From: Octopus vulgaris | Taxonomy: Eukaryota | DNA length: 64,000 nt | Direction of reading: 5' to 3' | Assembly (NCBI GenBank): GCA_951406725.2 | Contig: OX597817.1 | Location: 153,884,001-153,948,000, forward strand | Shown: positions 19,802 to 44,467 of the stretch, in pieces | Layout of the letters: each line of letters begins with the position of its first letter | Position numbering within the stretch: the stretch's first letter is position 1 | Notes under the pieces: generated by a model | What the model was told of the DNA's origin: nothing | Seen by the model: only the letters and a program-made list of their open reading frames with translations | Databases searched by the model: none | Program-made: the position numbers and the translations under genes

Positions 19802-19843
19802 TCACTACAACTGCTGGACCAGCCATGCATATTGAAGCAAAAG
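19802..19843 (+). CDS. Candidate phase-1 micro-exon of the VWA gene (xTTTAGPAMHIEAK)
   Basis: acaacag| 42 nt open, phase 1-1 |gtaaac. Confidence 0.4.
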
Positions 19844-19892
19844 GTAAACATGCAATGCAGATGATTTTCTTAATAAGAAGTACTGTATTCAA

Positions 19893-20306
19893 AGCGGCGA
19901 GCAGGCAGAAACGTTAGCACGCCGGGCGAAATGCTTAGCGGTATTTCGTCTGCCGCTACGTTCCGAGTTCAAATTCCGCAGAGGTCGACTTTGCCTTTCA
20001 TCCTTTCGGGGTCGATTAAATAAGTACCAGTTACGCACTGGGGTCGATGTAATCGGCTTAATCCGTTTGTCTGTCCTTTTTTGTCCTCTCTGTGTTTAAC
20101 CCCTTGTGGGTAGTAAAGAAATAGGTATTTCGTCTGCCGCTACGTTCTGTGTTCAAATTCCGCAGAGGTCGACTTTGCCTTTCATCCTTTCGGGGTCGAT
20201 TAAATAAGTAACAGTTACGTACTGGGGTCGATACAATCGACTTAATCCGTTTGTCTGTCCTTGTTTGTCCTCTTTGTATGTAGCCCCTTGCGGGCAGTAA
20301 AGAAAT
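19893..20306 (+). mobile_element. SINE family A with internally duplicated body
   Basis: Body repeated from about 20124. TSD AATAAGAAGTACTGTATTCAA at 19872-19892 and 20304-20324. Confidence 0.9.
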
Positions 20307-20562
20307 AAGAAGTACTGTATTCAATCATTGTTGAATGTTAAAAGACATCTATTCAATACTGAAGCAATTATCAGTTGACTTCAAGTTAGTTTGTTAGTTT
20401 GACGTTATCCATAATCAATTTTGATTTTTTCTTAATACATGTAAACCTGTGTGTGTTTGTGTGTGCGAAAATATGTACATATAAAAGCAGCCTCGCTGTC
20501 ATTACTTAGTTTACAGGAATCTGCATTAAATCTGACATGTAGATATACATACGTACATATCA

Positions 20563-20794
20563 AGGCGGCGAGCTGGCAGAAACGTTAGCACACCGGGCGA
20601 AATGCGTAGCCGTATTTCGTCTGCCGTTACTGTCTGAGTTCAAATTCCGCCGAGGTCAACTATGCCTTTCATCCTTTCGGGGTCGATAAATTAAGTACCA
20701 ATTACGCACTGGGATCGATATAATCGACTTAATCCGTTTGTGTGTCCTTGTTTGTCCTCTCCGTGTTTAGCCCCTTGTGGGTAGTAAAGAAATA
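20563..20794 (+). mobile_element. SINE family A, full length
   Basis: Complete head, core and tail. Confidence 0.9.
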
Positions 20795-21222
20795 TATAAT
20801 TACATACAGGCAAGGCACACACACAAACACATACATATGCGTTCACGCACACACACAAAACACATACCTACACACGCACACTCATTATATATTAGTAGTT
20901 GTAGTAATAATTGCAGGAAAGTAATTATTACTCTCATCCACGTAAGTGTCGCAAAAGCAATAATATAAAAAAATATAGTAAAATTTATGCAGTTTAGAGT
21001 CACATTTGAAAAATCACTGTTTTGTTGAATTTTAATTTTATAGTATAACACAGATTTAAGACAAAATGTTTTAGAAAATCATTTTCTTAACATTTATGAT
21101 ATGTATTGCCGCATTGAAAAGGAGAACGAAGCAAAGAATAAATAGCATCGGCGCAAAATACGCTAAGCCAAATTTCTAAAGTACATTCTTTCATATCATT
21201 TTACTTTTTTTCTGTTGAACAG

Positions 21223-41404: not shown

Positions 41405-41632
41405 TATTTCTTTATTACCCACAAGGGGCTAAACATAGAGGGGACAAACAGGGACAGACAAAGGGATTAAGTCGATTACATCGACCCAGTGCGAAACTGG
41501 TACTTTATTTATCGACCCCGAGAGGATGAAAGGCAAAGTCGACCTCGGCGGAATTTGAACTCAGAACGTAGCGACAGACGAAATATCGCTAAGCATTTCA
41601 CCCGGCGCGCTAACGTTTCTGCCAGCTCGCCG
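41405..41632 (-). mobile_element. SINE family A, full length
   Basis: Reverse complement of the family consensus seen in this window. Confidence 0.9.
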
Positions 41633-43488
41633 AAAACGTAACAACTGCCATTTATTCTTCCTTCAATCTCTGTGGCAATGATTACCTATCAGTATATATC
41701 ATTACCTTCAAAGAACAATCAGTTGTTTAGGTCGAATAAAGACATTTTTCTTTTTACTGAGTGTTGTGCTAAAAGAAGAGAGATAACGAAGCATCAGCTC
41801 ATATATCGTATAATCAAGTCCACCGCGAAATATCTGTAGTAGTCGAGCAAGAGAAATTATCTAGGTGGATATTTACTTAATGCTAGAAAACTAGAAGTAC
41901 ATACCTTCCTTCGGACTTCTAAATTTCATGAAAAGGTTTATTTTATCTTTAACGCATGTCGCCACTAAATCTTTACATGCACCAAACCTATTTCATGTTT
42001 TCCTTCTACACCAAAAAGCATGACTAAATTTCTTACCTCTCATATCAATGTTCATCATTCAATATTTACCATATTTCTTATTTTGTCGTGTCGAGCGGTG
42101 TTAAGTGAAAAGTAAAATTCCATCGATACCGTATCATAGTCCAGCTTACATTGTTAATGTCATCGGGAAATTCATGAAACTTAAAGCAACCCTCTTCACC
42201 ACTTTTTAAACTATAAATTTTTTCAGTTTAATCAAAGGATATCAATATTTCAAATTTATGAATAAATGTCACTGGCCATGTTATTTTATGCTGTATTTTT
42301 TATACGACTGTTATATTTTTATGTTTAATAGTGTAAGTATACCGTCAAATATTTCTAATGCACATTCCCTAGATTCAATTTCAATTTCAGATTCTTAACA
42401 CAAATTTGCCTTATAGTTATTTATTTTGACTTTTGCTGATTTTCTGAGTGCTGTGGTTTCCTTAATTTGCATACTTTTATATATATATATTTTTATAAAT
42501 TGCATTACAATATAATATATTTAATCCAATAAAAGGTAAAGATCTCCCTTGGATACTTTCATGGTCCACTTCATTTGATTTCGTAGTTTATCTTCGAGCA
42601 AGAACGACAAAATCGACACCCCTTTCTTTCTTTCTTTCTTTCTTTCTTTCTTTCTTTCTTTCTTTCTTTCTTTCTACTAATACAGAAAAATATATGTTTG
42701 TTTTAGTTTGATCATTCCTAGCAAGTATAGAACCTTGTTAAATATGCGAATGGTCTTAAAATGGCTGTTTTCTCGAAGTGTAACAAGTTTCAAAATTCGT
42801 AAATATTTTCTTCAGTTAACATGTATTTATAATGATTTCTGGTCTGTTGGACACTATTTCAAAGCCTGCATATGAGGTAAATAATAAACTCTATGTTGCC
42901 TTAAAGATTTCTTGATACTTGCGGGCTTTATTTCGTAATGCTTTAGACTTTTGTGGTTGAAATCTATAGTTGCATACTTAGTCTTACACACTTCACCTAT
43001 TTTCAACGTCTTCCATTTTAGATATTCTCAAAATAGCCAACGCAATTCATTGAAATGGCTTTTTCCTTTCTTTCAATCTAAATAGTAGACTACATTCTGA
43101 GTTCAAGTCAAGCTGAAGTCATCTTTTTTTTTTGTAATTGCTATCATATATATTAACACAAACTCACTGAATTAAACTTCCGCTGATAAACATTAGCCTT
43201 GTGTCAATACACTTATAAGCATTCTATTTCCTGTATATACTTTTTATTTTCATATTTACTTTCAATTACATTTGAGGTTCATTAACAATGACTTGAGTTT
43301 TACGCAGTACGTTTTGGTGTTTGACAATATACGAGTACAATCTTTTCTGTATACTCTTCAAATTATTTATACTGTTTTTACTTATATTCAGATTTATTTA
43401 TCTATTCATTCGTCTATTTACTTTTGAGCTTATTCATTTAGTTAAGACAATTACATTTGTGTATAATTAAAATTACTGATCACACTAA

Positions 43489-43575
43489 CTTCTTCTTCTT
43501 CTTCTTCTTCTTCTTCTTCTTCTTCTTCTTCTTCTTCTTCTTCTTCTTCTTCTTCTTCTTCTTCTTCTTCTTCTT
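43489..43575. repeat. (TTC)n microsatellite
   Basis: Trinucleotide run; source of the poly-E and poly-F ORFs. Confidence 0.95.
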
Positions 43576-43870
43576 CAACATCCCTTTCAGCTTTGAGTTC
43601 AAATCCTTGCATTCCAGCCCTAACCAACCCATTTTTAAGCACTTTCTAATCCTTCGTTCTCTTTGTAATGAAGAGGTTAAACTGCCGTTTAATGAAAATT
43701 TGTGTTATTTGTAGCAGGTTATGTGACTACGCAGAGGCTTTATCATCGGTTCATTTATGCCAATATTGTCGCTTCTGGAGGTACTGTCGCTGTTGTAGTT
43801 GTTCTTGCTTTTCACAAATATGACTAATTCTCATTTTTCTTTTAATTCTCTCTTTAACCACAAAAACTAG

Positions 43871-44467
43871 CTTGCCAGAACAAGAAAGTAGACATTCTGT
43901 TTCTGTTGGACAGTTCTTCCAGTATTCGTGACGTGAACTTGAAGAAGCAAATAAATGTTGTGAGTTTAATGATACGAAGATTTGACGTGGGTCCCCACAA
44001 GACTCAAGTCGGAGTATCAATTTACAGTCACCAATATATCCCTATATTTAAAATAGGGCAATTGAGAACAAAAACGGAAATCCTTTATAACATGAAAAAG
44101 ATCATTTTTATCGGCGGAGGGACAAAGACTGGAAAGGCTCTCGAAAAAGTAAGGACAGAAGCATTTAATATGGGTAGAAAACGCCCTGATGCAGGCAAAA
44201 TCCTTTTTGTATTTACCGATGGACAATCAAGCGATTATGAAAAAACCAGAGAAGAAGCTTATCTATTGAAAAAGTCCGGAGTTAGGATATTCGTAGTCAG
44301 CATTGGTTTGAATATTGATCCGGTTGAAATCAGAGACATTGCGAGTGAACCTTCCAAGGAGTTCATCCATAATGAAGCAACATTTGATGCTGTGATGCAA
44401 AGTACTGAAATTCTAACCCGTAAAACATGTGCAGCTCCGATGCAGATCACTCCAAAAGACCAGACTT
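43871..44467 (+). CDS. VWA-domain exon of a secreted tandem-VWA protein (matrilin / FACIT-collagen-type VWA)
   Basis: actag|CT TGC CAG AAC..; CQNKKVDILFLLDSSSSI (DxSxS), GGGTKTGKAL, VFTDGQS, RIFVVSIG, IASEP, ending RKTC..DQT T|gtaagt; phase 1-1. Confidence 0.92.

Follow-up and report, generated by a model that had tools for sequence, protein, structure and literature searches.

Architecture of the locus

We analysed a 64,000-nucleotide stretch of Octopus vulgaris DNA (the window; contig OX597817.1 of assembly GCA_951406725.2, positions 153,884,001 to 153,948,000, forward strand), which matches nine O. vulgaris isoform models, CAI9722016-CAI9722024, at 100% identity. These models carry only 'hypothetical predicted protein' as database name. 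The coding exons of the gene within the window are:

7081..7128, + strand: linker micro-exon e0, 48 nt, phase 1-1, AG/GT ends; in CAI9722022/CAI9722016, O. sinensis RefSeq models and one O. bimaculoides record
19802..19843, + strand: linker micro-exon e1, 42 nt, an optional exon; in 5/9 O. vulgaris isoforms, conserved in O. bimaculoides
21223..21267, + strand: linker micro-exon e2, 45 nt, with two Ser-Gly, both in basic surroundings; 45 nt in 7/9 isoforms, long form in two O. bimaculoides records
22054..22092, + strand: linker micro-exon e3, 39 nt, with a Trp-Trp motif, most often joined to the VWA2 exon; junction to 43871 in 4/4 runs, in 8/9 isoforms, counterpart in Argonauta
24618..24662, + strand: acidic block exon e4, 45 nt, encoding one Ser-Gly and two Tyr; in 3/9 isoforms, 138-nt inclusion path in run X5, conserved in P0036
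27079..27123, + strand: acidic block exon e5, 45 nt, encoding two Ser-Gly; from isoform comparison, tandem duplicate of e4
37958..38005, + strand: acidic block exon e6, 48 nt, lacking Ser-Gly, with a Tyr in acidic context and a single junctional N-glycan sequon; spliced straight to the VWA2 exon in X5, also in isoforms
43871..44467, + strand: VWA2 exon of 597 nt, encoding the MIDAS motif residues, with a net charge near +9; Pfam PF00092 E=2e-37, spliced contigs end to end in 4/4 runs
47659..48251, + strand: last coding exon, degenerate VWA3 without MIDAS motif, stop codon at its end; joined to VWA2 in 4/4 runs, weak Pfam VWA match E=5e-4

All seven window micro-exons were found in O. vulgaris models, and public model CAI9722024.1 (P0029) strings e1-e6 together in the order that the original prediction had given them. 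That prediction had placed these six segments correctly, with AG/GT ends, lengths in multiples of three, phase 1 and a final G, and erred in one length: it read e2 as 12 nt, a form whose donor, at 21234, is used in none of the nine isoforms, while the 45-nt form appears in all seven that use the exon. It had also regarded the exons as hidden, although all six are present in the public annotation, and e0 had been missed. The micro-exons are real, but they were known beforehand from public annotation.

The domain order is VWA1, micro-exon linker, VWA2 and degenerate VWA3; since VWA1 precedes the chain, the segments form an inter-domain linker and not the N-terminal stalk once proposed. The signal peptide, VWA1 and four further linker exons are absent from the plus-strand reading frames of the window, which locates them upstream, these 5' exons being deduced from comparison of protein isoforms. 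Altogether the linker comprises about 11 small frame-preserving exons (7 in the window and 4 inferred upstream) of 33-54 nt, accounts for about 21% of the coding sequence and spans 35-150 amino acids between VWA1 and VWA2 as annotated. From its sequence, the gene product is likely a secreted octopus protein of matrix type with three VWA domains, which agrees with the earlier suggestion of a mollusc VWA matrix-type protein. Secretion is predicted from a hydrophobic helix at the N-terminus; the rest of the protein contains no 19-residue window of strong hydrophobicity. In the predicted structure the C-terminus lies about 12 residues past the last VWA3 helix.

Matrilin, or cartilage matrix protein, combines VWA domains bearing MIDAS with EGF repeats and a C-terminal coiled coil. 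We rejected a matrilin identity for this protein: VWA with MIDAS is present, but a Pfam search returned VWA families only, with no collagen, FN3 or EGF match, and the EGF and C-terminal coiled-coil features were not found. Labels of collagen VI, XII or XIV were set aside likewise, as the protein holds no Gly-X-Y run of 5 or more and no collagen or FN3 Pfam match. A cartilage assignment is unsupported, the label 'cartilage matrix protein-like' on related records being probably an automatic name derived from VWA similarity.

Records of orthologues exist for O. sinensis (XP_029635344-46, XP_036357763-65), O. bimaculoides (XP_014768748, XP_052823636) and Argonauta hians (GAB1598185), those of O. 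sinensis and O. bimaculoides each spanning only the 5' half or the 3' half. Their names are generic ('collagen-like', 'cartilage matrix protein-like'), and none remarks on the linker. No study of this gene appeared among the titles and abstract openings covered by our literature search. The text of an octopus skin-mucus proteome refers to VWA proteins and 'cartilage matrix proteins' but gives no accessions for them (PMC11431876), and its supplement may include this protein.

Transcript evidence for a mostly all-or-none block

We examined read contigs over 43600-45000 in 4 of 19 matching runs; wider stretches hold long microsatellites. No run is recorded as RNA, though the spliced junctions in the contigs mark them as transcript-derived. 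In all four runs, from four studies (X1, X5, X9 and X7), e3 is spliced straight to the VWA2 exon at 43871, and in X5 only (1/4) e6 is spliced to the same position. Direct junctions thus cover e3 to VWA2, e6 to VWA2 and VWA2 to VWA3, and the upstream joins of e0-e5 rest on models. Both junctions into 43871 come from segments of the original chain, which had been open to challenge had 43871 been joined only from other exons. The four runs could overlap the data behind the annotation, whose alternative forms are PASA updates from transcript assemblies (PMC10700109).

That the segments reflect chance AG...GT matches, or noise in the annotation, is scarcely credible. A splice-site scan, its thresholds relaxed after an earlier pass missed two exons, ranked all seven real exons within the top 11 of 21 plus-strand candidates, but comparable scoring gave 15 candidates on the opposite strand, so motif score by itself is little proof and the transcript evidence bears the claim. 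Junction contigs in 4/4 runs, models in three Octopus species and conservation all speak against chance, and for e3 and e6 the direct junctions rule it out. The scan yielded no convincing further unannotated micro-exon in the window; the best leftover within the gene, 23366-23434, is unsupported.

Run X5 holds both forms, with an inclusion contig of 197 nt against a skip path of 59 nt (depths 48 and 79). The difference of 138 equals 45+45+48, so the inclusion path corresponds to e4+e5+e6; the last 30 letters of this contig were seen directly, and e4 and e5 were deduced from length. Across the four runs the skip form is dominant. The annotation agrees: the e4-e6 block is kept whole in 3/9 isoforms, dropped whole in 6/9 and partial in 0/9. 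In the public models only, other linker exons are skipped independently, and this produces the 35-150-residue range of linker lengths. Contigs and the nine isoforms together bear out frame-preserving exon skipping, which had been anticipated. The best reading is that splicing of the block is mostly on/off and not graded.

The original prediction had instead envisaged a graded dial of glycosaminoglycan (GAG) sites on the N-terminal stalk of a cartilage proteoglycan, the 12-nt exon included. Some observations lean that way: one O. bimaculoides-cluster record, P0036, has e4+e5 and lacks e6; upstream Ser-Gly sites vary independently across isoforms; the 12-nt donor scores similarly to the 45-nt donor; and the X9 and X7 contigs start 3 letters before e3, at a GTG common to the 12-nt and 45-nt ends, which is not decisive. 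Nevertheless, VWA1 stands before the chain, the 12-nt exon occurs in 0/9 models as does a partial block, and e4-e6 move together in 9/9 O. vulgaris models and in X5, which leaves this version very improbable.

Chemistry of the linker

The e4-e6 block (24618-38005) encodes 46 amino acids with 12 D/E, no K/R, 3 Ser-Gly and 3 Tyr, and the remaining linker holds 15 D/E and 14 K/R. Both of the motifs originally noted, Ser-Gly and Tyr in acidic context, are present and fall in a predicted disordered region. The predicted structure gives pLDDT <50 at residues 222-376, which we read as unstructured, although a shallow 9-row alignment that hardly covers the linker partly explains the low values. Around both Y337 and Y363, the five residues on either side include 4 acidic ones and no basic one.

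Ser-Gly is common in flexible linkers generally. Here it is enriched against composition shuffles, with 7 linker sites (p=4e-4), or 5 without the duplicate exon (p=4e-3), and Gly-Ser-Gly is enriched more strongly still. The local window pI is about 4.1 at three of the seven sites, 6.0 and 6.4 at one each, and basic at the two e2 sites (8.6 and 10.3). Within six positions upstream of the serines there are 0-2 acids, most acids lying downstream, while at human chondroitin sulfate (CS) sites acidic residues are mainly upstream of the serine (PMC10424144). The same source places human CS sites in disordered regions and ranks GSG as the top attachment motif (PMC10424144).

One Ser-Gly site, S268, is created by an exon junction, and 6 of the 7 serines lie near exon junctions (-1..+3 codons; p ~0.007, or ~0.013 with 4 independent sites; a post hoc comparison). 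These positions invite the idea of a combinatorial micro-exon code, in which Ser-Gly at exon starts would take its acidic context from the preceding exon, so that splicing would assemble and grade GAG sites alongside a master on/off block; the gene would then be a cephalopod CS core protein by which matrix stiffness and hydration are changed by tissue. We hold this broad version to be unlikely.

Exons e4 and e5 are a tandem duplicate, intron flanks included, and the sole pair of 21 to score above all 500 shuffles. A shared duplication origin for all the micro-exons is unsupported, as only e4-e5 beat all shuffles (e0-e3 p=0.012, uncorrected).

The block could also act without any GAG chain, as a bare, perhaps Tyr-sulfated, polyanion that masks or tunes the adjoining basic VWA2 or that captures cations or basic partners. 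In von Willebrand factor, acidic flanks of A1 regulate the VWA domain. The block directly precedes VWA2, which carries a net charge of +9 in this protein and of +8 in its Argonauta and O. bimaculoides counterparts, the values for six related proteins ranging from -2 to +5; Y337 and Y363 have acidic surroundings; and e6 is co-included yet carries no Ser-Gly. This account leaves the Gly-Ser-Gly enrichment unexplained, however, and it sits poorly with Argonauta, whose model has the basic VWA2 and an e3 counterpart yet no block; the AlphaFold model, a weak argument, shows no confident docking of the block. We regard a bare polyanion as possible but rather improbable. Such a role is compatible with glycanation.

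Conservation and relatives

Exons e4+e5 match the O. bimaculoides-cluster record P0036 at 28/30 residues and VWA2 at 172/199, the block being conserved at least as well as the folded domain in this octopus comparison. All 7 linker Ser-Gly are matched in an O. bimaculoides-cluster record, which at ~88% identity is not significant alone (~0.17 by simple arithmetic). Exon models are present in three Octopus species.

These data bear on another explanation, in which the micro-exons merely set VWA1-VWA2 spacing as a variable-length tether and the Ser-Gly and acid content is incidental. The 35-150-residue range of annotated linkers would suit it, as would the finding that most optional exons (e0, e1, e3 and one of those upstream) lack Ser-Gly and the highly variable linker length of related proteins. 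Charge concentrated in a single co-spliced block, the conservation of that block and the Ser-Gly enrichment argue the other way, and we consider spacing alone an unlikely explanation.

Cephalopod paralogues (O. vulgaris CAI9721421, Sepia CAE1158323, P0052/P0019) share the three-VWA layout at 37-50% identity. Their linkers are Thr/Ser-rich and mucin-like (46-60% T+S, figures that leave out the linker of paralogue P0040) or short, with 0 Ser-Gly. Among the matches listed (69 related proteins, 68 with a VWA match), only P0029 had more than one acid-flanked inter-domain Ser-Gly, a weak survey in that the gene's own representative P0007 (skip form) scores 0 and relatives' exons could hide likewise. 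A tree did not resolve the three cephalopod clades. Exon duplication may have swapped a mucin-type linker for a spliceable polyanion; this would be a young change, so far seen in Octopus records only.

Discussion

We propose that a splice-switched acidic block makes the protein a part-time proteoglycan when present and leaves it a plain VWA cross-linker when absent, a reading of the sequence that we judge about evenly poised between right and wrong. VWA1 and VWA2 would hold collagen or other matrix proteins via intact MIDAS sites. In the block, xylosyltransferase would prime Ser-Gly at S328, S344 and S348 of P0029, and possibly the junction-made S268, yielding chondroitin- or heparan-type chains, and Y337 and Y363 may be sulfated. 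With the block in, a long hydrated polyanion beside the basic VWA2 would space or swell a cross-linked matrix or mucus; with the block out, the linker would be a compact, roughly neutral tether. The mucin-like linker at the same place in paralogues suggests that the family uses this position as a probable glycan carrier, and Octopus produces CS (PMC6696379).

Splice-controlled glycanation is a known principle: in versican V0-V3, appican (L-APP), part-time collagen IX/XII and CD44, alternative splicing adds, removes or creates GAG segments (PMC4859157, PMC4314671). As in appican, a site here, S268, is formed by an exon junction. Unlike these systems, to which it has no homology, the octopus gene uses three exons of 45-48 nt, 138 nt in all and distributed over 13 kb, in a VWA-only protein, with glycanation predicted. 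In collagen XII, which is VWA-rich, the CS-bearing form is a splice variant.

Mussel byssus PTMP1, collagen VI, matrilins and integrin I-domains represent the collagen-binding tandem-VWA proteins, and here both VWA1 and VWA2 have the MIDAS residues. The best solved-structure matches are collagen VI alpha3 and PTMP1 by sequence, with PTMP1 first by fold; PTMP1-like collagen cross-linking is suggested by this likeness of sequence and fold. What sets the octopus protein apart from this group is its set of three domains and its long spliced linker, together with the lack of a triple helix and of any EGF or FN3 match.

In Schistosoma micro-exon genes (MEGs), secreted proteins are encoded by 10-20 short exons, most with lengths divisible by three, that are separated by long introns (PMC10526429). 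The octopus gene resembles them in having at least 10 short multiple-of-three exons between long introns (7 seen, 4 inferred). In MEGs, however, the exons are mostly 15 bp and form most of the protein, whereas here they measure 33-54 nt, make up about a fifth of the coding sequence and join folded VWA domains.

With the principle known and the exons already annotated, the novelty of the finding is limited. Cephalopods are a classic source of unusual chondroitin sulfates such as CS-E and CS-K (PMC6696379). The titles and abstract openings covered by our search offered no evident cephalopod CS core protein. To our knowledge, few such core proteins have been identified. This gene would be a concrete core-protein candidate and directly testable, with named serines and a block-skipped isoform as natural internal control.

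A micro-exon linker between VWA domains

The exon chain of the original prediction is real and publicly annotated; its anatomy is corrected here, and the evidence for block-wise splicing is new. By sequence inspection, the six segments (e1-e6, between 19802 and 38005) have AG/GT ends, lengths in multiples of three and phase 1. Two VWA-encoding exons follow:

43871-44467, + strand: VWA2 exon (Pfam PF00092, E=2e-37)
47659-48251, + strand: degenerate VWA3 exon including the stop codon, the second VWA-encoding exon in the window

The VWA2 exon matches Octopus vulgaris proteins at 100% identity. 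The gene has nine isoform models in this species (CAI9722016-24), whose alternative forms were added, as the genome paper describes, by PASA updates that drew on assemblies of short and long reads (PMC10700109). The longest model, CAI9722024.1 (768 aa; residue numbering follows it), carries all six exons in the predicted order, so the chain was not hidden as had been claimed. The predicted length of exon 2 did not hold: it runs to 21267 (45 nt), the 12-nt version being used by none of the nine models, and O. bimaculoides records also have the long form. Two models use a further exon, e0 (7081-7128). Microsatellites fill the introns of the VWA gene, which explains the noisy ORF list of the window; short ORFs at 54224-55011, 60695-61139 and 9602-9925 are presumably mariner/Tc1 transposase and retroelement remnants.

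The protein runs from an N-terminal hydrophobic helix through VWA1 (~37-222) and the linker to VWA2 and VWA3. VWA1 and four more linker exons (54, 33, 48 and 48 nt, deduced from isoform differences) matched no + frame of the window and must therefore lie upstream; the chain, proposed as an N-terminal stalk, thus links two domains, comprises about eleven exons and is preceded by VWA1. The O. sinensis RefSeq model XP_036357765.1 finishes with a short last exon that matches window ~6073-6101, and four others leave the e1 donor unused and read through to a stop; these early-ending models may be VWA1-only products or artefacts of split annotation.

MIDAS motif residues are present in VWA1 and VWA2 and absent from VWA3, and the closest structures are PTMP1 and collagen VI. 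Assignment to the matrilins, the collagens or the schistosome MEGs failed, the last sharing part of the gene layout (PMC10526429). The cartilage role named in the original prediction gained no support. Among the papers listed in literature searches, none was a study of this gene; one mucus proteome's supplement might list the protein.

Evidence that the acidic exons are spliced as a block

We placed contigs from four runs of four studies (four of the 19 runs with matching sequence) on 43600-45000. In all four, contig cover ended at exon edges, with the VWA3 exon as the 3' loose end and the end of e3 as a 5' loose end, so exons 4-6 are skipped in that path. Run X5 has a second path with its loose end at the exon 6 end: its contig measures 197 nt versus 59 nt when the three exons are skipped. 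The 138-nt difference is exactly exons 4+5+6 (30 letters of the inclusion contig were read; e4 and e5 are inferred from its length). Depths of 48 and 79 for the two paths indicate that both forms are substantial in X5, contig depth being a poor measure of expression. What is shown is the exon structure, the order of the domains and two splice forms; among the O. vulgaris models the block is wholly included in three of nine and wholly excluded in six.

Finer steps than all-or-none use may exist, since the O. bimaculoides-cluster record P0036 includes e4+e5 but not e6, and XP_014768748 starts within e6. Contigs starting 3 letters upstream of exon 3 in X9 and X7 hint weakly at further branching.

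At 22069 all four runs carry G, which changes Lys to Arg in e3 (the aligned Argonauta residue is also Arg), and at 44184 they carry a silent T (C>T). A-to-I editing at 22069 is indistinguishable from an allele, and the C>T change suggests that the reference differs by alleles. Run X1 also has a low-depth contig over intron sequence 43600-43798 (unspliced RNA or DNA).

Linker composition and conservation

Of the block's 46 aa, 12 are acidic and none is basic; the other 104 aa of the linker are neutral overall (15 acidic, 14 basic). Including the block brings the linker to a net charge of about -13, versus -3 to +1 when it is left out. VWA2 is basic (net +9). Of the two main rivals to the glycan reading set out below, a glycan-free polyanion acting on this basic domain is one that we consider unlikely; the other, that the micro-exons are purely a length spacer, seems to us rather improbable.

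The linker's seven Ser-Gly sites exceed shuffle expectation (p=4e-4; p=4e-3 without the duplicate e5, e4 and e5 being a tandem duplicate). The block holds three of them, an exon junction creates a fourth (S268), and the surroundings of the other three are neutral or basic. Upstream acids predominate at human CS sites as reported in PMC10424144; the linker sites have 0-2, so their match to that context appears fair and not ideal. Across the linker exon junctions (residues 254-348), six of the seven serines fall, by post hoc count, at -1 to +3 codons from a junction, so upstream context varies with the preceding exon. Y337 and Y363 each have four acidic neighbours, and residues 222-376 are unstructured in an AlphaFold model built on a shallow alignment. 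An exact 15-nt match between e4 (24623-24637) and the VWA3 exon (47949-47963), encoding the same five residues, may be chance given a common peptide or a trace of origin.

Against O. bimaculoides records, identities were 28/30 for e4+e5, 93/107 for the 5' linker, 139/146 for part of VWA1, 172/199 for VWA2 and 176/196 for VWA3. The Argonauta model has an e3-type exon and lacks the block. Linkers of cephalopod paralogues are Thr/Ser-rich or short, without Ser-Gly, though single representatives may conceal optional exons. Related multi-VWA genes in Argonauta (P0062, P0064 and P0068; GAB1606718-21) have neighbouring accessions and sit on a contig of identical length, which suggests that members of an expanded VWA family of cephalopods are clustered in tandem.

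A predicted splice-controlled glycan linker

Splicing sets GAG attachment in versican and appican, as described in PMC4859157 and PMC4314671; the octopus gene is alike in its splicing, with glycanation predicted from sequence. Family knowledge suggests that the protein would be secreted and that VWA1 and VWA2 would bind matrix in a MIDAS-dependent manner. A proteoglycan role for the linker is plausible but unproven. The best explanation, which we hold with evenly balanced confidence, is that block splicing sets predicted GAG priming and Tyr sulfation on the block, which would in turn alter matrix spacing or hydration.
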